Assembly: GCA_043826455.1 (NCBI GenBank)
Contig: JBDRQD010000048.1
Location: 128,001 to 192,000 of the forward strand
Direction: 5' to 3'
DNA from: Candidatus Bathyarchaeota archaeon
Lineage (GTDB): Archaea > Thermoproteota > Bathyarchaeia > TCS64
DNA: 64,000 bases
Of the stretch, positions 3,653 through 16,187 are shown in pieces. Below the pieces are notes generated by a model. The model worked only from the letters and a program-made list of their open reading frames with translations, had not been told where the DNA came from and ran no database searches. Each line of letters starts with the position of its first letter. Positions within the stretch are counted from its first letter, which is position 1. A program made the position numbers and the translations under genes.

Positions 3653-4612
3653 TTAACCCATAATAATTTGGCTTAGCTTGTCTGCGTCGATGCTTCCACC
3701 TGTGAGAACGCAGACGGTTCTACCTCTTTCCTCTTTGGGGGTCGATAGCGCCGCTGCGAGGCTTATGGCTCCTGCTCCTTCGGCGACCAGCTTGTTCTCA
3801 AGGGCGAGGAACCGGATGGCCTTCTTTATCTCCTCCTCTGAGACCAGCACCACGTCGTCCAGTGTCTCCCTCACTAATTTCAGCATGTCCTCAGTGACAG
3901 GGTCGTTGATAGCGTCTGCGATGGTGTCTCTTGTCTCATGAGGGACAACCCGGTTCTGCCTCAGGCTCTCATAGAACCATGGAGAGAGCTCAGCGTTGAC
4001 TCCGATGACGCGTACGTTGGGGTTCAACGCTTTGGCTGCGAGGGCTATGCCGGAGGACACGAAGCCTACTCCCAGGGGAACGTAGATTGTCTCGGTTTCG
4101 GGTGCGTCCTCCATCACCTCGAGGCCGATGGTCCCGTGGCCGTCCAGTAGACGGAACTCGGCTAAGGGGTGGAGAAAACAGTAGTCGCTGGGCAGGTTGT
4201 CGAGGTACTCGAATAGCTCTTTCATGGACATCAATATGATCTCCATCCCGTACTTTCTGCAGGACTCGATCTTTGACCTGGGTGTGTGGTCCGGCATTAT
4301 TGCCCGTGAGGGTACGCCGTAGAGGTTGGCCGTGTATCCAAGTCCTTGGGACATGTTTCCTGCGCTCATGGTCGACAGTCCTCTCCTCCTTTCCTTTGCT
4401 GGCAGTTGAGATGCCCAGTTGTAGACTCCTCTGATCTTGTAGCTGCCTACGGGTTGCAGCATCTCGGGTTTAAGGAGTATCCCTGTGTCCTCCTCCCTGT
4501 ATCGTCTCAGCGGTATGAGGGGGGTGTGTAGTGCGACTCCTTTGATGCGCTCTGCCGCTTTTCTGAAATCTTTCAGGGTGGGTCTGTGAGAACTGGGAGC
4601 TGGATTGACCAT
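3653..4612 (-). CDS. PLP-dependent threonine/serine dehydratase family (fold type II)
   Basis: LKPEMLQPVGSYKIRG, SAGN, GHGTIGLE, EGAGA, TGGSID. Confidence 0.88.
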   Translation of the reverse strand: MVNPAPSSHRPTLKDFRKAAERIKGVALHTPLIPLRRYREEDTGILLKPEMLQPVGSYKIRGVYNWASQLPAKERRRGLSTMSAGNMSQGLGYTANLYGVPSRAIMPDHTPRSKIESCRKYGMEIILMSMKELFEYLDNLPSDYCFLHPLAEFRLLDGHGTIGLEVMEDAPETETIYVPLGVGFVSSGIALAAKALNPNVRVIGVNAELSPWFYESLRQNRVVPHETRDTIADAINDPVTEDMLKLVRETLDDVVLVSEEEIKKAIRFLALENKLVAEGAGAISLAAALSTPKEERGRTVCVLTGGSIDADKLSQIIMG

Positions 4613-5737: not shown

Positions 5738-6769
5738 CTAGAGGCCCCACAGGACCCTGGGGACGGTGACGCCTCCCTCCGTCCTGTGCTTGACACTGCG
5801 CCTGATCCTGCCCCAACGGGCAAGCTGCTCCAGGGGCTCGAAGAGGTCGTTGGCGTCGCCGTAGCCCAGCCTTACCAGCGTCCTCCAGGCGTCCTGTTCG
5901 ACGCCGTAGGCTTCGCCGTAGCCTTTTCTGAGGAGGGGGATGAGGAGGTCGTAGCTGTCCAGCTCGCCCTTCTCCTCTAGTAGCCTCTTGACGTGGCTCT
6001 CGAAGATGGCGATGTCTAGGGTGAGGTCGGGGAAGCTTCTCCCGGCGTCCAGCTTGGTTATCTCTGCGTCTCCGGGGGTCAGCTTTATGAGGCTGTTGCT
6101 GGGGGCCCTGAAGACGTTGAACGCGTCTCTGAGGTGGCTGAAGCCGACCCTGCTGCTGGCGAACATGGACTCCCCGTCCCCGACTCCCAGGTAGCAGGGC
6201 TGGTTCCAGTTGGCTATGTAGACGGCGTTGGGCTCGCTGCTGGTCACGGCCCCCAGGAGGACCATGCCGGTGAGGCTGTTAGCTGTTGCGCGGAGCGCCT
6301 CCGCGAAGGCGGCGTCCTCCTTCACCTTGTCGCTGAGCATGTGGACCGCGACCTCGCTGTCGGTGATGTAGTTCAGCTCCTCCACCAGGCTCTCGAAGAC
6401 GTGACTCTTCTCCAGCCTCCTCCAGTGCTCCTCGAAGTTGCTGATTACTCCGTTGTGCATCAGCACAGCGGACCCGTCCTCGGTGAGCCAGGGGTGGGCG
6501 TTCTGAGCCAGGTTGCAGCGGCTGTCCTTGAGGGCGGCGGCGCTGTGCCTGCTGTGGGCTATGCCCGTGGACCCCTTCAGTGAAGCTATCTCTGTCTTCT
6601 TGACCACCTCGTCCCCGGGGCCGTTGTCCTTGATCAAACGTATCTTTCGGCGGTGGATGGTGGCTAGGTCGGTGGCGTGGGCCCCCAGGTACCCTTCCTG
6701 CAGTCGAAGGGACTCCAGGAGGATGGGGGCGGCGTCTCTGCTTCCTACGTAGGCTGCGAGCTGGCACAT
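5738..6769 (-). CDS. Class II glutamine amidotransferase-like protein, paralog of 1718-2761
   Basis: MCQLAAY, IAHSRH, NAHPW, HNGVISN, TDSEVAVHML; shared C-terminal RTEGG...VPR. Confidence 0.8.
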   Translation of the reverse strand: MCQLAAYVGSRDAAPILLESLRLQEGYLGAHATDLATIHRRKIRLIKDNGPGDEVVKKTEIASLKGSTGIAHSRHSAAALKDSRCNLAQNAHPWLTEDGSAVLMHNGVISNFEEHWRRLEKSHVFESLVEELNYITDSEVAVHMLSDKVKEDAAFAEALRATANSLTGMVLLGAVTSSEPNAVYIANWNQPCYLGVGDGESMFASSRVGFSHLRDAFNVFRAPSNSLIKLTPGDAEITKLDAGRSFPDLTLDIAIFESHVKRLLEEKGELDSYDLLIPLLRKGYGEAYGVEQDAWRTLVRLGYGDANDLFEPLEQLARWGRIRRSVKHRTEGGVTVPRVLWGL

Positions 6770-7519: not shown

Positions 7520-8017
7520 TTACTCCAGGGTGATCCAGCCCTTCTCTATGGCGGTGATGCCGGTGCGGGCCGCCTCTATTATGCCTATGTGCTTGACCTC
7601 CCTCATGAACTCGGTGATCTCGTTCACGGAGCCGGTGACCTCGGCTATTATGGTGTCCGGCTTTATGTCCAGTATCTGGCCCTTGTAGCGGTTGATGGTG
7701 GCCAGAGCCTCCTCCTGGGCCATGGGGTCAGCGGTGCTCAGCTTCACCAGGGCCAGGTCCCGCTGGACGGTGCGCAGCGGGTCCAGGCGCTTCACCTTGA
7801 TGACGTCCACCATCTTCTCTATCTGCTCGACGAGCTTGGTGATCTCGTGGGCGTCTCCGCGGACCGTGATGGTGATCCGGGTGGTGTCCACGTCCTCGCC
7901 GGCGATGGCGGTGATGCTGTGGATGTTGAAGCCCTTGCGCCTGAAGTTGTTGCTGATGTTGAAGAGCACGCCGGGCTTGTTCTCCACCATGAGGCTGATA
8001 ACGTTTAGGGGCGTCAC
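7520..8017 (-). CDS. ilvN: Acetolactate synthase regulatory subunit
   Basis: ACT domain ENKPGVL...FRRKGFNIHSI; RDLALVK; EAARTG. Confidence 0.93.
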   Translation of the reverse strand: MTPLNVISLMVENKPGVLFNISNNFRRKGFNIHSITAIAGEDVDTTRITITVRGDAHEITKLVEQIEKMVDVIKVKRLDPLRTVQRDLALVKLSTADPMAQEEALATINRYKGQILDIKPDTIIAEVTGSVNEITEFMREVKHIGIIEAARTGITAIEKGWITLE

Positions 8018-9702
8018 GGTAGATCATCCGTCAATATGTCCTTTAAACCCATCCCTGGGGGGATCATGGGGTACACGTTCTCCTCGGGGTCTATGGGCAC
8101 CTCTATCACCGTGGTGTAGTCCGCCGCAGCGGCTCTCCTCAGCTCCGTGTTCAGCTCCTTCATGGTCTCCGTCTTGACGCCGTGGGCTCCGTAGGTCTTG
8201 ACAAGCTCCGTGAAGTCCAAGGTGTAATCCCTTTTCACGGCCGAGTATCTGCCCCCCATGAAGAGGCGCTGCCACTGGGCCACCATGCCCAGCATCCTGT
8301 TGTTGAGCACCACCACCACTATGGGCAGGTCCTCGTCCACGGCTACCGCCAGGTTGTTCTCCGTCATGGCGAAGCTGCCGTCCCCGCTTATGTTCAGCAC
8401 CACCCTGTCGGGTCTGGCCGCCTTGGCGCCTATGGCTGCGGGGGTCCCCCACCCCATGGTGCCCAGGCCGCCGGAGGTGAGGAAGGTGCCGGGCTCGTAG
8501 ACGTCGTAGTGGAGGGCCGCCAGCATCTGGTGCTGGCCCACGTCGGTGGTCACCAAGGCGTCCCCGGGGAGGGCGCGTCTGATGGCCTTGATGACTGCGG
8601 GACCCGTTATCCCGTTGGCGTACTCCGGCACCTCGTAGCTGCGCCTGAACTCCTCTATCTTGTGGGCCCACTCGCCGTTGCCTCCCTCGGCCCTCCTCAG
8701 GGCCCTGATCTGTTCCACCAGGCCCCTGATGCAGGGCTTGGCGTCTCCCCAGACCTTGATGACGCTCTCCACGTTCTTGTCTATCTCGCTGCGGTCAATG
8801 TCCATGTGGATGATCCTGGCGCCTGGGGCGAACCCGGCCAGGGCCCCGGTGGTCCTGTCACTGAACCTGCTGCCCACCACCAGGAGCACGTCCGCGTCGG
8901 GCACTAGGTAGTTGGCCTCCGCCCTGCCGTGCATCCCCAGGAGCCCCAGGCTCAGGGGGTGGTTGCTGGGTATGGAGCCCTTGCCCATGAGGCTGGTGGC
9001 CGTGGGCGCCATGAGCAGCTCAGCCAGCTCGGTCAGCTCCCTGCCTGCCCCGGCGCTCACCACCCCACCGCCCGCCACTATGACGGGCTGCCTGGCCTCA
9101 GAGAGTACCTTGGCCGCCCACTCCAGCTCCGTGGGGTCCGGCTGTAACCTGGGCCTGTAGCCGGGGAAACTCACCTCGGCGTCGAAGTCCATGTCCGCGG
9201 ACTCTGTGGTGACGTTCTTGGGCAAGTCCACCAGCACGGCCCCCTTCCTGCCCGTGTTAGCCACATACATGGCCGCCTTCACGGCCCAGGGTATGCGCCC
9301 GGGCTCCCTCACCTGGTGGTTCCACTTGGTGATGCTGGCGGTGACGCCGATGATGTCCACCTCCTGGAAGGCGTCGGTGCCCACCATGCTCATGCTCACC
9401 TGGCCTGTGAAGGCCACCAGGGGGCTGCTGTCCAGCTGGGCCGTGGCGACGCCTGTGACTATGTTGGTGGCGCCGGGTCCGCTGGTCACCTGGACCACGC
9501 CGGGCCGCCCGGAGGCCCTGGCGTAGCCGTCGGCCATGTGGGCGCTGCCCTGCTCGTGGACGCCCGGCACGTACCTCATGTCGGTGTTCAGCATCTCGTC
9601 GCATATGGGTATCAGGGCCGCGCCCGTGATACCGAATACGTGTGTAACTCCCTCCTTCTCCAGGGCCCTGACGTAGGCCCTGGCTCCTGTCATCTCAGTC
9701 AT
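8014..9702 (-). CDS. ilvB: Acetolactate synthase large subunit (ThDP/FAD)
   Basis: HEQGSAHMADGYAR, TSGPGATN, GMHG, SGGLGTMG, GDGSF...NN. Confidence 0.95.
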   Translation of the reverse strand: MTEMTGARAYVRALEKEGVTHVFGITGAALIPICDEMLNTDMRYVPGVHEQGSAHMADGYARASGRPGVVQVTSGPGATNIVTGVATAQLDSSPLVAFTGQVSMSMVGTDAFQEVDIIGVTASITKWNHQVREPGRIPWAVKAAMYVANTGRKGAVLVDLPKNVTTESADMDFDAEVSFPGYRPRLQPDPTELEWAAKVLSEARQPVIVAGGGVVSAGAGRELTELAELLMAPTATSLMGKGSIPSNHPLSLGLLGMHGRAEANYLVPDADVLLVVGSRFSDRTTGALAGFAPGARIIHMDIDRSEIDKNVESVIKVWGDAKPCIRGLVEQIRALRRAEGGNGEWAHKIEEFRRSYEVPEYANGITGPAVIKAIRRALPGDALVTTDVGQHQMLAALHYDVYEPGTFLTSGGLGTMGWGTPAAIGAKAARPDRVVLNISGDGSFAMTENNLAVAVDEDLPIVVVVLNNRMLGMVAQWQRLFMGGRYSAVKRDYTLDFTELVKTYGAHGVKTETMKELNTELRRAAAADYTTVIEVPIDPEENVYPMIPPGMGLKDILTDDLP

Positions 9703-9788
9703 GTTTGGCTGCCTCCCACTCCCGCCTCACCTTGAAGGGCTGGGCGGGCACGTTAGTAGAAGTTTTACGTTTGGTTTCTCTGCGGGGT

Positions 9789-9812
9789 CTACCTAAGAAT
9801 ACGATACCCCAT
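9789..9812 (-). CDS. Putative leader peptide uORF2 (MGYRILR)
   Basis: ATG directly follows the TGA of uORF1; GGAGG inside uORF1; mirrored in the second ilvB leader. Confidence 0.55.
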   Translation of the reverse strand: MGYRILR

Positions 9813-9857
9813 TCAGCTCTGCCCCTCCGCTGGGGGCCCGACAAAACGATACCCCAT
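9813..9857 (-). CDS. Putative leader peptide uORF1 (MGYRFVGPPAEGQS)
   Basis: GAGGAG upstream; TATA-like TTTTTATT at 9904-9911; mirrored in the second ilvB leader. Confidence 0.55.
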   Translation of the reverse strand: MGYRFVGPPAEGQS

Positions 9858-9943
9858 TTTCAGTCTCCTCGTACCGTTCGTAATGTTGGATGAAGGCTCA
9901 CCTAATAAAAAGGTTGTCAGTAACGCTTGTTGCATACGAGCGG

Positions 9944-10420
9944 CTAGGGCGGGAATAGGGGCACAAACTTGTAGGTATCGCTGAAGTCTATGCGGTTCTC
10001 CCCCAGCATGGTCTCTATCCTCATGGCGCCCTTGAACTCCCACTCCCAGACCCGGCTCGTCCGGGCAGCCTGTATGTGGGTGCCGCTGGTGGGTGGCAGC
10101 GTCAAGGTTCTCTCCACTATCTGGGGCGTCCCCCCCACCACGGTTATTGGGCCGGCTATGGTGTCCGTGGTCAGGGCCACGCCGTTGAGCATGACGCTGT
10201 AGGGCGTCTCCAGGACGGTGACGCGGACGCCCCGCGGGTTGGTGTACTTGAAGCTGAGGTACATTGTGGAGTCGGTGGGGGTGAACCCCATGATCTGGAC
10301 CTCCACATCCGTGTACATGGCCGACTTCACGTAGCCCCAGTAGTCCAGGGCCACGGCCGCCACTACGATGAGCACCAGCCCGAGGGCTATGAAGGCGGGC
10401 AGTTTCTTGCGCTCAGTCAT
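9944..10420 (-). CDS. LEA_2/WHy-like membrane-anchored protein
   Basis: N-terminal TM helix followed by a beta-rich domain with YTNP. Confidence 0.55.
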   Translation of the reverse strand: MTERKKLPAFIALGLVLIVVAAVALDYWGYVKSAMYTDVEVQIMGFTPTDSTMYLSFKYTNPRGVRVTVLETPYSVMLNGVALTTDTIAGPITVVGGTPQIVERTLTLPPTSGTHIQAARTSRVWEWEFKGAMRIETMLGENRIDFSDTYKFVPLFPP

Positions 10421-10487
10421 CGATGAATGTGGGGGCTCATGGCGAATAAAAGTGTGGCTTGTTTCAAATCACGTGTTATTTCAAGCA

Positions 10488-11237
10488 CTAGCTGAGCTTC
10501 TTGAAAACATATATTGCCCATCCCTGTGCGTCTCGTCCTTCCTCCAAGTACGCGTTCTTATATCCCAGAATCTTTGAGAGAAGCTCCTCGTTGTCAGGGT
10601 CGTCGGGGTTCTCAGTCAAGTGTTGCTCAACTGCCAGCCACTGGAGGCTCTCATAGTGATCCCAGTCATCCTCGTCGCTCATGATGGTGTAAACACACCT
10701 CATACCCATGTCCTCACCAACCCGTATGTTCTCGAGGTGGCTTCCGCAGTCCTCTTTCTTCATCTTCTGGGACTCAAGATACTCGTCACTCGGCTCCCTC
10801 ATCCAGAAGGGTTCGCCGACGACAACCCAGCCACCGGGGGCAGTCATCTCTGAGAGCGTCTTTAAGGTCCCTCTGTGGCCGCCGTAGACCCAGCTCGCGC
10901 CGATGCAGCTAGCTAAACGGAACTTCTCACAGTTTCTAGGCTTATAGTCCGCTCCATCCATCTCCAAGAAATCCAGGTCCGCCTCAGGCACCCGTCCCTG
11001 TTTCTTTTCTCTACAGTAACGGATACAGAACGGTGACTTGTCTACGCCGACCCCTGATACGTCGTACAGCTCAGCGAGCCTGACGAGGAACTCACCCTTA
11101 CCGCACGCGATGTCTAGAACACGGTCCTTCTTCTTCAAGGGAAGTACATCGCATAGCCTGTAGAATTTCTCCCTATTCATGGGGTTGCAGACGAGGTGCT
11201 TCTTATGGGTGATGTCGAAGAACTTCCAGCGGTCCAT
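10488..11237 (-). CDS. Class I SAM-dependent methyltransferase
   Basis: VLDIACGKGE, GVD, CIGASW, PGG-VVVGEPFW. Confidence 0.88.
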   Translation of the reverse strand: MDRWKFFDITHKKHLVCNPMNREKFYRLCDVLPLKKKDRVLDIACGKGEFLVRLAELYDVSGVGVDKSPFCIRYCREKKQGRVPEADLDFLEMDGADYKPRNCEKFRLASCIGASWVYGGHRGTLKTLSEMTAPGGWVVVGEPFWMREPSDEYLESQKMKKEDCGSHLENIRVGEDMGMRCVYTIMSDEDDWDHYESLQWLAVEQHLTENPDDPDNEELLSKILGYKNAYLEEGRDAQGWAIYVFKKLS

Positions 11238-11345
11238 GCTTCATCAGCGAGGTCTATCGTTTAAAATAGTTACGTGAACACTGCGGGGGCACGTTAAACT
11301 ACGCTTTTGTACAACAAATAGGGAAATGAAGAGAATTGAGGGCGC

Positions 11346-12344
11346 CTACTTCTCCAATCCGCTCATCCTGCGGACCTGACGCCCGACCTTCTCGATCTCC
11401 AGGGCGTCGCACTCCGCCATGAGCTCCTCGAACTTCTTGGCCCCCGCCTTGCTCTCAGCGATCCAGGCCTTGGCGAAGCTGCCGTCACGGACCGCCTTCA
11501 GCGCCTCCCGCATGTTGGCCTCAACATGATCATCAACGATCACTGGGCCCACGGTCATGCCTCCCCACTTGGCGGTGTCGCTCACGGCCCGGTACATGCC
11601 TCCGATGCCGCTCTTGTATATGAGGTCCACTATGAGCTTCAGCTCGTTGCACACCTCGAAGTACGCCAGTTCAGGCGGGTACCCGGCCTCCGTAAGCACC
11701 TTGAAGCCGCGCCTGATGAGCTGGTCAACGCCTCCGCAGAGGACGGCCTGCTCGCCGAAGAGGTCCGACTCGGTCTCGTTCTTGTAGGTGGTCTCGATGA
11801 CGCCCGCCCGGCCGCTGCCCAGGGCCTTGGCTACGGCCAGGGCCTTCTTGAGGGCCTGGCCTGAGGCGTCCTGGTGGACCGCCACCAGTGCGGGGACCCC
11901 GAACCCGGCCTCGTACTGGCGCCTCATCTCGGGGCCTGGGCTCTTGGGGGCCACCATGATGACATCCACGTCCTTTGGCGGCTTAATCTCCCCGAAGTGG
12001 ATGTTGAACCCGTGGGCGAACTGGAGGGCCTTGCCCGGCGTCATGGCCAGGGCCACCTCCTCCTTGTAGACGCTAGGCTGCGCCATGTCCGGCATCAGCA
12101 TCAGCACCACGTCGCCCCTCTGGGCGGCCTCCAGGTGGGTCACGGGCTTGAACCCGTCCTCCTGGGCCCGCTTCCAGCTCTTCCCTCCGGGCCTGAGCCC
12201 CACCACTACGTTTACGCCGCTGTCCCTCATGTTGAGGGCCTGGGCTCTACCCTGGCTCCCGTAGCCTAGGACGGCCACGGTCTTTCCCTTCAAGACTGAC
12301 TCGTCTATGTCCTTGTCGTGGTAAACCTTCACCAATCTATTCAC
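11346..12344 (-). CDS. ilvC: Ketol-acid reductoisomerase
   Basis: [37 protein letters not shown]. Confidence 0.96.
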
Positions 12345-12830
12345 CTACAGTTTTAGCCGCCCCTTCTCCAGGGCGGTGACTCCCGTCCTCGACATCTCTA
12401 CGACGCCGACGCTCTTAACGTAATCCAGGAACTGGTCCAGCTCCTCGGGCGTCCCGCTCACCTCAGCCATGATGTTGTCCTCGTCTATGTCTAGGACCAG
12501 GCCGTGCTGGTTGTTGATGAGGCGCAGGGCGTCTTCCCGGGCCATGGGGTCCCTGGTACTCAGCTTCACCAGCAGCATCTCCCGCCGCACAATACGCAGC
12601 GGGTCCAGGCGCTTCACCTTCACCACCTCCACCATCTTGTCCAGCTGCTCCAGGAGGTTGTTCAGGGTCCTGGGGTCAGCCTCCACGGTGATGGTCATCC
12701 TGCTGTACCTGGAGTCCTCCAGGGCCCCCACGGTTATGCTGTCGATGTTGAAGCCCCGGCGCCTGAACAGGTTGCTCACGTTGAAGAGGACCCCCGGCTG
12801 GTTCTCCACCAGGAAGCTGACGGTGTGCAC
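12345..12830 (-). CDS. ilvN: Acetolactate synthase regulatory subunit
   Basis: ENQPGVL, FRRRGFNIDSITVG, EMSRTG. Confidence 0.93.
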   Translation of the reverse strand: MHTVSFLVENQPGVLFNVSNLFRRRGFNIDSITVGALEDSRYSRMTITVEADPRTLNNLLEQLDKMVEVVKVKRLDPLRIVRREMLLVKLSTRDPMAREDALRLINNQHGLVLDIDEDNIMAEVSGTPEELDQFLDYVKSVGVVEMSRTGVTALEKGRLKL

Positions 12831-14519
12831 CTAGTCGGCCTCCATGAGGGTGTCCTTCAGCCCCATCCCCGGGGGCACCATGGGCATCACGTTCTCCTCG
12901 GGGTCGATGGGCACGTCGATGACAGTGGGCACGTCGGCCTTCATGGCCCTCCGCACCGCGGCCCTGAACTCGTCGTAGGAGGCCACCCTGACGCCCTCGG
13001 CCCCGTAGGCGCCGGCCAGCTTAACGAAGTCCGGGTTGCCCTTCAGCTTCACCGCCGAGTACCTGCGGTTGTAGAAGAGGCGCTGCCACTGGGCCACCAT
13101 GCCCAGCACGTTGTTGTTCAGCACCACCACTATGACGGGGAGCTCCTCCTCCACCGCCGTTGCCAGCCCGTTCTCCGTCATGCCGAAGCTGCCGTCCCCG
13201 GCGATGTCCACCACCGGGACCCCCGGCTTGGCCGCCTTGGCCCCGATGGCTGCGGGGAAACCCCACCCCATGGTTCCTAGGCCGCCGCTGGTGAAGAAAG
13301 TTCGGGGCATGTACGCGTCGAAGTGGAGGGCCGCCCACATCTGGTTCTGGCCCACCTCCGTGGTGACTATGGCGTCCCTGGGCAGCTCCTGCCGCAGGGC
13401 CCTGATGACCTTGGGGGCCCGCAGGTAGGGGGGCCTCTCCTCGCCGTTTTCACCCATGTCGCACCTGAGCTCCCCTATGCGTTTGGTCCACTCGGGGCTG
13501 GTCTTGACCGTGCGAAGCACCTTCACCCTGTCCAGGAGGCCCCTGAGGGCCAGCCCGGCGTCGCCCACCACCTTGGTCAATGTCTCTACGTTCTTATCGA
13601 TCTCGCTGCGGTCGATGTCTATGTGGATGACCTTGGTGTTGGGGGCGAACTCGCTGATCTTGCCGGTGGTCCTGTCGCTGAAGCGTGACCCCACCACCAG
13701 GAGCACGTCGGACTTGGGGACCATCATGTTGGCCTCCATGGTGCCGTGCATCCCGCAAAGGCCCAAGCTCAGGGGATGGTCGCTGGGTATGGCCCCCTTG
13801 CCCATGAGGCTGGTGGCCGTGGGCGCCAGCAGGAACTCGGCCAGGGCCGTAAGCTCACCGCTGGCCCCAGCCGCTATGACGCCGCCCCCGGCCATGATGA
13901 TGGGCCTCTCGGCCTCAGCCAGTATCTTGGCGGCCCAGTCCAGCTCCTCGGGGCTGGGCGCCTTCGGCGGCGAGTAACCTCTGAAGCTCACCTCTTCCGG
14001 GAACACCATCTCAGCTGACTCGGTGGTGCAGTCCTTGGGTATGTCCACCAGGACGGCCCCCTTCCTGCCCGTGTCGGCCACGTAGAAGGCCCTCTTCACG
14101 GCCACAGGAATCTCCTCCGGGCTCGTCACCGGGATGTTGTACTTGGTGACGCTGGCCGAGACCCCTATTATGTCGCACTCCTGGAAAGCGTCGGTCCCTA
14201 TCACAGGCCTGTTCACCTGGCCCGTGAAGGCTACCACGGGGCTGCTGTCGATCTGAGCAGTGGCCAGGCCCGTGACTAGGTTAGTGGCACCGGGCCCGCT
14301 GGTGGCCATGCAGACTCCCACCTTGTTGAGGGCCCGTGCGTAGCCGTCGGCCATGTGGGCGGCGCCCTGCTCGTGGCGCGCCAGGATGAACCTCATGTCG
14401 CTGTTGAGCAGCTCGTCGCATATGGGGATCAGTGAGCCGCCGCTGATGCCGAAGATGTGCCTGGTGCCCTCCCGCTCCAGGGCCTTGACGAAGGCGCGGG
14501 CCCCGGTCATCTCAGTCAT
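12831..14519 (-). CDS. ilvB: Acetolactate synthase large subunit
   Basis: RHEQGAAHMADGYAR, TSGPGATN, GDGSF; second copy. Confidence 0.95.
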   Translation of the reverse strand: MTEMTGARAFVKALEREGTRHIFGISGGSLIPICDELLNSDMRFILARHEQGAAHMADGYARALNKVGVCMATSGPGATNLVTGLATAQIDSSPVVAFTGQVNRPVIGTDAFQECDIIGVSASVTKYNIPVTSPEEIPVAVKRAFYVADTGRKGAVLVDIPKDCTTESAEMVFPEEVSFRGYSPPKAPSPEELDWAAKILAEAERPIIMAGGGVIAAGASGELTALAEFLLAPTATSLMGKGAIPSDHPLSLGLCGMHGTMEANMMVPKSDVLLVVGSRFSDRTTGKISEFAPNTKVIHIDIDRSEIDKNVETLTKVVGDAGLALRGLLDRVKVLRTVKTSPEWTKRIGELRCDMGENGEERPPYLRAPKVIRALRQELPRDAIVTTEVGQNQMWAALHFDAYMPRTFFTSGGLGTMGWGFPAAIGAKAAKPGVPVVDIAGDGSFGMTENGLATAVEEELPVIVVVLNNNVLGMVAQWQRLFYNRRYSAVKLKGNPDFVKLAGAYGAEGVRVASYDEFRAAVRRAMKADVPTVIDVPIDPEENVMPMVPPGMGLKDTLMEAD

Positions 14520-14626
14520 GTTTGCTCAGCTCCCATGTTCTGCTGAGGCGGTACCCCGCCGGGGCTCCGCCGTGCTCTGGTTCTCGGACGCTAGAATACT
14601 TCTTAGCGTGGTTCAGTCGTTTGGGT

Positions 14627-14653
14627 CTACGATATAATAAAACGATACCCCAT
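14627..14653 (-). CDS. Putative leader peptide uORF2 (MGYRFIIS)
   Basis: TAA-ATG junction with uORF1; GGAGG inside uORF1. Confidence 0.55.
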   Translation of the reverse strand: MGYRFIIS

Positions 14654-14695
14654 TTAAGCCCCCTCCGCCCGGGGGTTGACAAAGCAATTCCCCAT
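14654..14695 (-). CDS. Putative leader peptide uORF1 (MGNCFVNPRAEGA)
   Basis: GGAG upstream; TATA-like TTTTTATT at 14742-14749. Confidence 0.55.
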   Translation of the reverse strand: MGNCFVNPRAEGA

Positions 14696-14966
14696 TTTTT
14701 GGTCTCCAGTTGGGTAGGTAACATGAAGGGCAGGGTGAGCCAATAAAAAGCTTACTACTGTACGTATTCATACACACAAGCATAATTCCTGTTCCGAATG
14801 TCTCTCAGGTGAGGCGGGTTCTGGATAAACGACTAAAGTTGGACAGGCCTCATTTTCCCCATATCTTCAACGAGTCCAGGCAGCATTCATGCGGCTCACC
14901 GGGGCCGCGGCTCTCCGCCACCTTAACAGTTATCTCCTCGGCCCCAACAAATACATGAGGAAAGAT

Positions 14967-16187
14967 ATGAGCTACTTCACGCACCTTGATTGCTCGGCCT
15001 GCGGCGAGGAGCACGACGCCACCATCGTCCAGACCGTGTGCAAGAAATGTGGAAAACCTCTCCTGGCCAGGTACGACCTGGGGAGAGTAGCGGAGGAGGT
15101 GACCAAACGGGAGCTGGTGGGCCGAGAGGCCACCATGTGGAGGTACTGGGAGATGCTCCCCGTCAAGAGCAGGAAGAACGTGGTGAGCCTCGGGGAGGGG
15201 TGGACCCCCCTGACGCCTGCGCCCCGCCTCGGAGAGGAGATCGGGCTACCCGACCTCTTGGTCAAGGACGAGGGCGTCATACCCACGGGCAGCTTCAAGG
15301 CCCGCGGCCTGGCCATGGCCGTGAGCAAAGCCAAGGAACTAGGCATAAAGCGCGTCGCCCTGCCTTCGGCCGGCAACGCCGCCGGCTCCATGGCCGCCTA
15401 CGGGGCCCGCGCCGGGATGGAGGTCTACGTCTTCATGCCCAAGGACGCCCCCAAGGTGAACATGGTGGAGAGCGAGATCGTCGGCGCCAAGGTGGTGCTG
15501 GTGGACGGCTTCATCACCGACGCCGGGAAGCTGGTGAAGGAGGGCATCAGCGAGATGGGCTGGTTCAACGTGACCACCCTGGGCGAGCCCTACAGGATCG
15601 AGGGCAAGAAGACCATGGGCCTGGAGGTGGCCGAGCAGCTCGACTGGCGTCTCCCCGACGTGATAGTGTACCCAACAGGCGGAGGCACGGGCATCATAGG
15701 CATGTGGAAGGTCTTCGACGAGCTGGAGGAGATGGGCTGGATAGGCAGCGAGCGGCCCAGGATGGTGAGCGTCCAGGCCGAGGGCTGCGCCCCCATAGTC
15801 AAGGCCTACAACGAGGGCAAGAAGGAGTCGGAGTACTTCCAGAACGCCAAGACTCTGGCCGCCGGCCTTAGGGTACCCAAGGCCCTGGGCGACTTCCTGA
15901 TACTTAGGGCGGCCAGGGAGAGCGGAGGCACCTGCATAGCCGTCAGCGACGAGGAGATCATGGACAGCGTGGGCCAGATCGGCCGGGCCGAGGGTCTCTT
16001 CGCGTGCCCCGAGGGTGCGGCCACCCTGGCGGCCCTGAAGAAGATGCTGGCGGACGGTCAGGTGGACAGGGACGAGAAGGTGGTCCTCTTCAACACGGGT
16101 TCGGGCCTCAAGTACGTGGATCTGTTCGAGGTGCACGCCTCCGTGGCGGACCCCAGGAAGCCCTTCAACTACCGGAGCCTACTCTGA
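14967..16187 (+). CDS. thrC: Threonine synthase
   Basis: N-terminal CxxC/CxxC, SLGEGWTPL, PTGSFKARG, SAGN, EGKKT, FNTGSGLK. Confidence 0.9.
   Translation: MSYFTHLDCSACGEEHDATIVQTVCKKCGKPLLARYDLGRVAEEVTKRELVGREATMWRYWEMLPVKSRKNVVSLGEGWTPLTPAPRLGEEIGLPDLLVKDEGVIPTGSFKARGLAMAVSKAKELGIKRVALPSAGNAAGSMAAYGARAGMEVYVFMPKDAPKVNMVESEIVGAKVVLVDGFITDAGKLVKEGISEMGWFNVTTLGEPYRIEGKKTMGLEVAEQLDWRLPDVIVYPTGGGTGIIGMWKVFDELEEMGWIGSERPRMVSVQAEGCAPIVKAYNEGKKESEYFQNAKTLAAGLRVPKALGDFLILRAARESGGTCIAVSDEEIMDSVGQIGRAEGLFACPEGAATLAALKKMLADGQVDRDEKVVLFNTGSGLKYVDLFEVHASVADPRKPFNYRSLL

Follow-up and report, generated by a model that had tools for sequence, protein, structure and literature searches.

Bacterial attenuators such as ilvL, ivbL, trpL, hisL and pheL gauge charged tRNA through a ribosome that reads cognate codons on a leader ORF. 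Comparatively little is established about mRNA-level sensing of amino acids in archaea. The window analyzed here, a stretch of 64,000 nucleotides from a Bathyarchaeia genome, carries two ilvB operons on its minus strand, each preceded by a TATA-like box, a Shine-Dalgarno (SD) site and two short in-frame uORFs that start with a shared 18-nt motif. The question raised by this locus is what these twin uORFs do. An earlier note had proposed that they act as leader peptides that switch downstream hairpins. The twin mini-ORFs are real, and comparison of related sequences points to +1 ribosomal frameshift cassettes rather than to a hairpin attenuator. We consider it highly likely that each cassette is a programmed +1 frameshift site sensing one aminoacyl-tRNA, that is, a hungry-codon switch.

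Leaders of the two ilvB operons

The TATA-like box, the GAGGAG element, both uORFs and the parallel layout of the second copy were all located on the minus strand as the earlier note had described them (Table 1). A T-run like the ilvB1 TATA-like box occurs at a comparable distance in homologous leaders. The ilvB1 and ilvB2 products are biosynthetic acetolactate synthase large subunits, both above the TIGR00118 cut-off. Each cassette comprises a start codon, an SD-like GGG/AGG element, two codons, a slippery codon 5 and a specifier codon 6. The repeat exceeds chance: across the 2.95 Mb genome a 15-mer consensus has six exact matches, all ahead of branched-chain amino-acid genes. Four of them are in the ilvB leaders; the fifth marks the 5' end of C57, a LeuA/CimA-family gene, and the sixth lies upstream of C39, which is valS. 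A looser motif pattern yields seven matches, the seventh falling within a long ORF, and a 12-mer with two mismatches is at chance level in the window (4 found, 3.86 expected). tRNAs with anticodons GAA, GAC, GAG and GAT are encoded in the genome.

Smaller elements of the proposed leader were conserved to differing degrees. The motifs GCGGAGGGG and GTAGACCC are present in the window and recur weakly, in 4 and 5 homologous Val-type leaders, respectively. The stop-start junction between the uORFs holds in both window copies; elsewhere a 3-nt spacer is frequent, and the junction is absent in L013. The uORF2 ATG is replaced by AGG in L011 and by GTG in L015.

Two threonine genes nearby are without a cassette: a threonine synthase gene (14889-16187, plus strand), which points away from the ilvB2 operon, and, near ilvB1, a threonine dehydratase-like gene (3653-4612, minus strand). 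The window also has a pair of similar ORFs close to each other (1718-2761 and 5738-6769, both minus strand), each a stand-alone glutamine amidotransferase-like protein of class II that resembles the GlmS N-terminus.

Table 1. Leader elements and operons on the minus strand of the window
Feature	Positions	Strand	Remarks
TATA-like box TTTTTATT, ilvB1-ilvN1 leader	9904..9911	-	putative promoter
GAGGAG, Shine-Dalgarno site of uORF1	9865..9870	-	duplex of about -6 kcal/mol with the genome's own 16S tail
Cassette 1, proposed Val sensor	9840..9857	-	start; SD-like element at nt 2-11; slippery TTT 9843-9845; specifier GTC 9840-9842
uORF1 MGYRFVGPPAEGQS, zero frame, 14 codons	9813..9857	-	would be read to its stop when no shift happens
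C-run/G-run hairpin, directly 3' of cassette 1	9821..9837	-	conserved; includes likely SD of uORF2
Cassette 2, proposed Leu sensor	9795..9812	-	slippery ATT 9798-9800; specifier CTT 9795-9797; frame identical to cassette 1
uORF2 MGYRILR, zero frame, 7 codons	9789..9812	-	directly abuts uORF1
+1-frame linker ORF, 48 codons	9695..9841	-	reachable only via a shift; TGA 9695-9697 overlaps first ilvB1 codons
Predicted stem over most of the ilvB1 SD (GGGAGG 9712-9717)	9713..9762	-	local fold
ilvB1, acetolactate synthase large subunit	8014..9702	-	TIGR00118, 677 bits
ilvN1, acetolactate synthase small subunit	7520..8017	-	NCBIfam
TATA-like box, ilvB2-ilvN2-ilvC leader	14742..14749	-	from sequence
Cassette 3, proposed Val sensor	14678..14695	-	TTT 14681-14683; GTC 14678-14680; uORF MGNCFVNPRAEGA 14654-14695
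Cassette 4, proposed Ile sensor	14636..14653	-	TTT 14639-14641; ATT 14636-14638; uORF MGYRFIIS 14627-14653
+1-frame linker ORF, 55 codons	14512..14679	-	ends on ilvB2 start (TGA overlapping first codons)
ilvB2 12831-14519, ilvN2 12345-12830, ilvC 11346-12344	operon 11346..14519	-	NCBIfam

The decisive feature, absent from the earlier note, is a +1 frame that stays open from the cassettes to a stop codon overlapping the ilvB start. We examined 31 ilvB leaders (30 loci and the second window copy), of which two were too short. In all 29 remaining leaders the +1 frame has no stop between the cassette and the ilvB start region. The +2 frame is open in none, and shuffled leaders keep the +1 frame open with a mean probability of 0.18. 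The +1 stop falls at +5 in 26 leaders (TGA in 11, TAA in 9, TAG in 6), and the three remaining leaders have it at -9, -7 and +17, which puts it in every case within -9 to +17 of the ilvB start, as expected of coupled translation. The distance from cassette to ATG varies from 116 to 191 nt and equals 2 modulo 3 in 28 leaders, L015 being the exception. The linker peptide itself is poorly conserved, so it is the frame that is maintained.

The specifiers of these leaders follow the paralogs. The first cassette reads Val in 28 of the 29 (Ile in L032), and the second reads Leu in 21/21 copies of one ilvB paralog and Ile in 7/7 of the other. Variants include a single cassette (L024), three cassettes for Val, Leu and Ile ahead of one ilvB (L353), and Leu then Val slip sites inside one uORF (L431). 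In line with the earlier note, the mini-ORFs are very probably translated; single Val, Leu and Ile codons at position 6 probably serve as the sensors, given the fit between codon 6 and the downstream pathway for five amino acids. The Ile-Leu pair had also been taken as a sensor and should be reinterpreted, with codon 5 as the putative slippery site and codon 6 alone as the sensor (Leu at ilvB1, Ile at ilvB2).

Leader-peptide attenuation would have a ribosome stalled at the Val, Leu or Ile codon switch hairpins controlling termination or the ilvB SD, with the frame unchanged. Such a scheme would accommodate the pathway match of codon 6, the stem predicted over the ilvB1 SD and a hairpin after cassette 1 that is predicted in 29/29 leaders (-7 to -14 kcal/mol). 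The unpaired probability of the ilvB SD zone is 0.12 at ilvB1 with a mean of 0.35 (range 0.11-0.63) over the 29 leaders, and predicted masking is partial in many homologs. A bacterial-type scan, whose model archaeal terminators need not fit, found no terminator-like site at 9650-9960, and the covariation check of the hairpin returned only two pairs with compensatory change, each in 1 of 17 sequences. The sensor is one codon rather than a run. Attenuation also leaves unexplained the modulo-3 constraint that ties leader length to a fixed frame, the conserved stop on the start codon, the slip-codon rule, and the start-less cimA and trpE genes to which the cassette is fused out of frame. We regard hairpin switching of the bacterial type as highly improbable for these leaders. 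An Rfam search of 9600-15000 to E=1 gave no match, and a T-box-like, tRNA-binding reading was dropped because the frame relations explain the data and the Rfam search was blank. For a frameshift cassette, the hairpin after cassette 1 may gate the uORF2 SD or slow the ribosome.

The same cassette ahead of other genes

A class-wide motif pattern was present in 77/151 genomes, with 175 matches compared to 12 for a reversed control. At C57, the motif ATG opens a zero frame that ends after 7 codons, and in its +1 frame sits a LeuA/CimA-family enzyme with no start codon in its own frame. This start-less gene, together with the open +1 linkers at ilvB and valS, suggests a frameshift at codon 5 with codon 6 as sensor. 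HMMs assign the gene to the LeuA family, and its enzyme lacks the His-x-Phe motif of LeuA 3rmj that a cassette-free paralog retains; the gene is a putative citramalate synthase gene (cimA).

A GTDB-wide scan for a cassette followed by a LeuA-family motif in any frame returned at least 119 loci. Among the 119 matches listed, 108 of them in records naming Bathyarchaeia, the enzyme is in the +1 frame in every case (the frame was not imposed), and the zero frame closes after 6-16 codons. Codon 5 of these listed matches is TTT in 119/119 though NTT was allowed, and codon 6 is ATT in 61 and ATC in 58, never ATA. No ATG, GTG or TTG is available in the enzyme frame of 69 of the 119 listed genes, and the other 50 have some in-frame start candidate at scattered positions. 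Two contigs labelled Krumholzibacteriaceae bacterium (L107, L180) have cassettes and genes of the Bathyarchaeia type and were probably misnamed or misbinned. No cassette was found among the 28 5' regions listed for LeuA-type paralogs, and no Leu cassette on leuA was seen. A third class was surveyed gene-first for TIGR00977 citramalate synthases, with the specifier not imposed (30 loci, one without a motif match); the cassette is present in 28/29, with CAA at codon 5 and ATC or ATT at codon 6. One citramalate synthase gene (L535) has lost the cassette start and G-run, has the A-run and Ile codon in place, and has upstream in-frame starts.

Extension to tryptophan came out of sample, from three matches fused to trpE with TGG at codon 6. 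In gene-first surveys, a Trp cassette occupies 26/29 trpE 5' ends in the window's class (30 loci, one truncated) and 27/30 in a second class that includes Nitrosopumilus relatives and a TrpE sharing 96% identity with that of Nitrosopumilus maritimus. Some in-frame start candidate, again scattered, is found in 17 of the 26 Bathyarchaeia cassette genes. All 27 cassettes of the second class have an in-frame GTG 4 nt past the ATG, which databases give as the start, and a TATA-like box ~30 nt upstream of the ATG suggests a leaderless mRNA beginning at the ATG. The annotated GTG start of Nitrosopumilus-like TrpE (L508, L501-L526) may be wrong. The L407 trpE has an in-frame cassette relic that is shorter by one base and lacks the Trp codon, likely a constitutive derivative. 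The L472 trpE (family f47) is an ambiguous variant with a CTT-TGG site in the right frame after the G-run and a different start spacing. trpE was not found in the window's genome (97.7% complete, 7.2% contamination), and a match occurs in 2/43 of its family.

The GTG of the second-class trpE genes brings in another reading, that the cassette initiates the +1 frame. Its G-rich element would then be the SD for a start in that frame (GTG, TTG or a near-cognate codon), with the zero-frame uORF merely competing or occluding. This reading would also draw on a TTG 7 nt after the G-run in Val cassettes, and on the W-G-I that the +1 frame encodes through codons varying at the third position. In Val cassettes this TTG is the +1 codon and itself a possible start; the codon after the slip site is otherwise TTA (Ile), TTC (Leu and His), TTT (Trp) or AAA (CAA-type), none of them a start. 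Initiation in the +1 frame is further at odds with the listed cimA-type genes that have no ATG, GTG or TTG at all and with the TATA-like box that would begin the second-class mRNA at the ATG, and it does not predict the dependence of codon 5 on the next base. We judge it very unlikely, and take the cassette as a frameshift site below.

Synthetase genes carry the cassette as well. Ahead of valS a Val cassette (GTY) is followed in 16/16 cases by a +1 stop lying between +1 and +32 relative to the start, and the +2 frame closes 57-136 nt before that stop; at the genome's own valS, the +1 frame ends in a TTGA stop-start overlap. A second TATA-like element resembling the ilvB1 promoter lies in the +1 linker of the valS leader (C39 near 43560, L064; homologs L306-L313), and might serve valS as an additional, basal promoter located 3' of its Val cassette. 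Matches with a His codon precede hisG or hisS in 10/13 cases. These hisG/hisS leaders (L424-L429, L451-L454) have doubled His slip sites, of which the second is read in the +1 frame. Frame 0 and frame +1 both meet an early stop; the +2 frame continues for 45-63 codons and stops between about -21 and +10 nt relative to the gene start. Doubled His sites had no match in the window's own genome.

Two further sites resemble the cassette. At one, a Cys-codon site (L433; G088:C6, 2173, plus strand), 69 codons of +1 frame lead up to a TTGA that overlaps a gene of 346 aa of unknown family; it is a single case and may be chance. The other is an 8-codon ORF lying in the -1 frame upstream of a regulator gene (G000:C38, 2267, minus strand), which we take to be Lrp/AsnC-like and which has in-frame TTG and GTG starts.

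Beyond these genes the patterns lose discrimination. For specifiers with a non-T middle base, the class-wide pattern gave 84 matches in 66/251 genomes with a reversed control of similar size, and 50 loci inspected were convincing only for the 3 trpE cases. Arg, Pro, Ser, Phe, Gln and Cys candidates were rejected as lying mostly inside genes, and a recurring Leu-like match in the window's genus as the antisense strand of a conserved gene. A strict pattern applied phylum-wide matched 61/401 genomes; ten matches outside the window's class were checked, giving five real cimA-type fusions and five chance matches. In hand-picked genomes of other families, a cassette was present in 4/16 of the LeuA/CimA-family rows listed, and among five trpE listed there were one clear and one ambiguous case. 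Three metatranscriptomes contained small shares of the stretch. Assembled RNA contigs of related strains (four runs) had no listed indel over the cassettes; they do not reveal where transcription starts, on which strand or at what level, and they were given no evidential weight.

Slip codon, 16S pairing and proposed mechanism

The specifier encodes the amino acid of the downstream pathway at 309/310 non-redundant labelled sites, the exception being a mislabelled non-trpE gene; the genomes are related, so such counts are not independent, and since several cimA and ilvB sets were gathered with patterns fixing the specifier class, the gene-first sets carry the weight. Codon 5 varies with the base that follows it. 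Before purine-starting specifiers it is TTT in 204/204 Ile and Val sites of the TTT type, and before A it is CAA in 30/30 Ile sites of the CAA type. Before pyrimidine-starting specifiers its first base is free, with a codon other than TTT in 7/12 Leu, 48/54 Trp and 9/9 His sites. After a +1 slip, the P-site tRNA would face the last two bases of codon 5 and the first base of codon 6. With a pyrimidine next, the slipped tRNA would retain two pairs regardless of its first base; with a purine next, this would be possible only for tRNA-Phe (or tRNA-Gln on AAA). The variation of codon 5 matches what +1 re-pairing of a P-site tRNA would predict.

The 5' part of the cassette is predicted to pair with the 3' tail of 16S rRNA, which was taken from the genome's own archaeal 16S as located by Rfam search. 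Predicted pairing of cassette nt 1-12 is -8.4 kcal/mol in three of the four window cassettes and -4.7 in the fourth, and cassette class means are -7.3 to -9.0 compared with -3.7 at 1268 ordinary gene starts. Codon 2 alternates among GGG, AGG and GGT, which keeps the pairing and alters the peptide. This alternation and the free amino-acid change at codons 3-5 indicate a constraint on the RNA rather than on the peptide.

The motif marks a regulon and is conserved as nucleotides (GGG, TAT and TTT show hardly any synonymous change), which would also fit recognition by a regulator that binds DNA or RNA, or a transcriptional slippage site, with the frames incidental. The motif is not palindromic, and the letters of codon 6 track five amino acids. 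Incidental frames would not be expected to hold at 119/119 of the cimA-type matches listed and in 29/29 ilvB leaders. As to slippage by the polymerase, the T-run is just 3-4 long, with CAAA in one class, and runs of such length are too short for it. Binding or transcriptional slippage appears extremely improbable.

From the regularities of architecture, frame, codon-to-pathway match, slip codon and predicted anti-SD pairing, we infer the shift itself, the direction of regulation, the coupling and a role for the hairpin. A ribosome starting at the cassette AUG would advance until codon 5 occupies its P site and the specifier, codon 6, its A site, with nt 2-11 paired to the 16S 3' tail at short spacing as a presumed stimulator, as in prfB. 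When the cognate charged tRNA is plentiful, the ribosome would read on and stop within a few codons, and no enzyme would be made. When it is scarce, the A site would stay empty and the P-site tRNA would slip by +1. At cimA-type genes and trpE, the slip would carry the ribosome directly into the enzyme frame as a fusion. At ilvB and valS, it would enter a linker of 30-60 codons ending on the gene start, opening the SD for termination-reinitiation; slipped ribosomes on the his leaders would likewise run a linker to the gene start before termination-reinitiation.

Such cassettes could be wired together. Two in-frame cassettes in series would act as an OR gate, so that shortage of Val or Leu would turn on ilvB1-ilvN1 and shortage of Val or Ile the second operon, ilvB2-ilvN2-ilvC. 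The second His slip site in the +1 frame implies that hisG and hisS would need two successive His-dependent shifts, which is AND-like. More broadly, we think it likely that several Thermoproteota classes, including Bathyarchaeia and marine ammonia oxidizers, use this modular cassette as a general amino-acid sensor in place of attenuators and T-boxes, retargeted by one codon, wired in OR or AND fashion and read out by fusion or coupling.

Comparison with known systems

The control logic proposed for the two ilvB operons has a counterpart in the E. coli AHAS isozymes, which are controlled by Val plus Leu or by Val plus Ile. Bacterial attenuators serve the same pathways, but the cassette has one sensor codon instead of runs, and its output would be a reading frame rather than a choice of terminator. 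T-box riboswitches use one specifier codon per leader, control both biosynthetic and aminoacyl-tRNA synthetase genes and occur in tandem; the cassette differs in that its specifier lies in a translated frame and in having neither an antiterminator nor an Rfam match.

A search limited to the open literature found no published description of such a system. We rate the cassette as new as a regulatory class, its slip mechanism being a variant of a known one. If the proposal is true, it would add a class of amino-acid control beside attenuation, T-boxes and GCN4-type uORFs, mechanically borrowed from prfB, and annotated cimA and trpE starts in many genomes would need correcting. It would also supply small codon-programmable starvation sensors. 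The proposal is directly testable, as a cassette of 18 nt is portable to any reporter and relatives of cultured Nitrosopumilus carry the cassette on trpE.

Archaeal recoding on record in the accessible text of PMC8211752 comprises the fucA1 -1 frameshift, haloviral -1 and +1 cases and Mg-chelatase, and this 2021 review counts there a single demonstrated cellular frameshift in archaea, a -1 case. Each case described in that text is either -1 or viral, with no metabolite sensor among them, whereas the cassette is proposed to shift by +1 and to sense amino acids. Parts of the process have precedents: the available portion of PMC6728339 shows termination-reinitiation coupling for Haloferax, and that of PMC7531240 supports the anti-SD consensus and leaderless initiation. 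Frameshifting at pheL is reported as incidental in the accessible parts of PMC5009743 and PMC3082878, and the former, a 2016 frameshifting review, calls the natural use of 'hungry codon' shifting unclear in the same text.

The closest likenesses are to two bacterial systems described in the accessible text of PMC5009743. In the ermC leader, a ketolide-induced shift lets ribosomes run on from the leader ORF across the spacer, and the start site beyond it becomes open, as we propose for ilvB and valS; ermC is drug-induced, a single gene, bacterial and not amino-acid sensing, in contrast to the proposed amino-acid sensor. With prfB, the release factor 2 gene, the cassette would share a short zero-frame ORF, an SD-like stimulator 5' of a re-pairable P-site codon, a slow A site and a product made only from the new frame. 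On comparative and predicted evidence, the cassette has the corresponding parts, namely a functional +1 ORF behind a short zero-frame ORF, a re-pairable P-site codon and an internal SD-like sequence. As far as that text goes, the trigger in prfB is UGA and RF2 and the shift site is codon 25-26, whereas the cassette would respond at codon 5-6 to a sense codon (Val, Leu, Ile, Trp or His) of the pathway's own amino acid. The SD-to-P-site spacing of the cassette is unlike that of prfB, and the cassette genes are ilvB, valS, cimA-type, trpE, hisG and hisS rather than a UGA/RF2 system. Unlike prfB as described there, the cassette is archaeal, forms a regulon-wide module, may be stacked in OR or double-shift arrangements and would often use coupling instead of fusion. 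Because its trigger would be the cognate sense codon, the cassette is a member of neither the prfB nor the ermC type.
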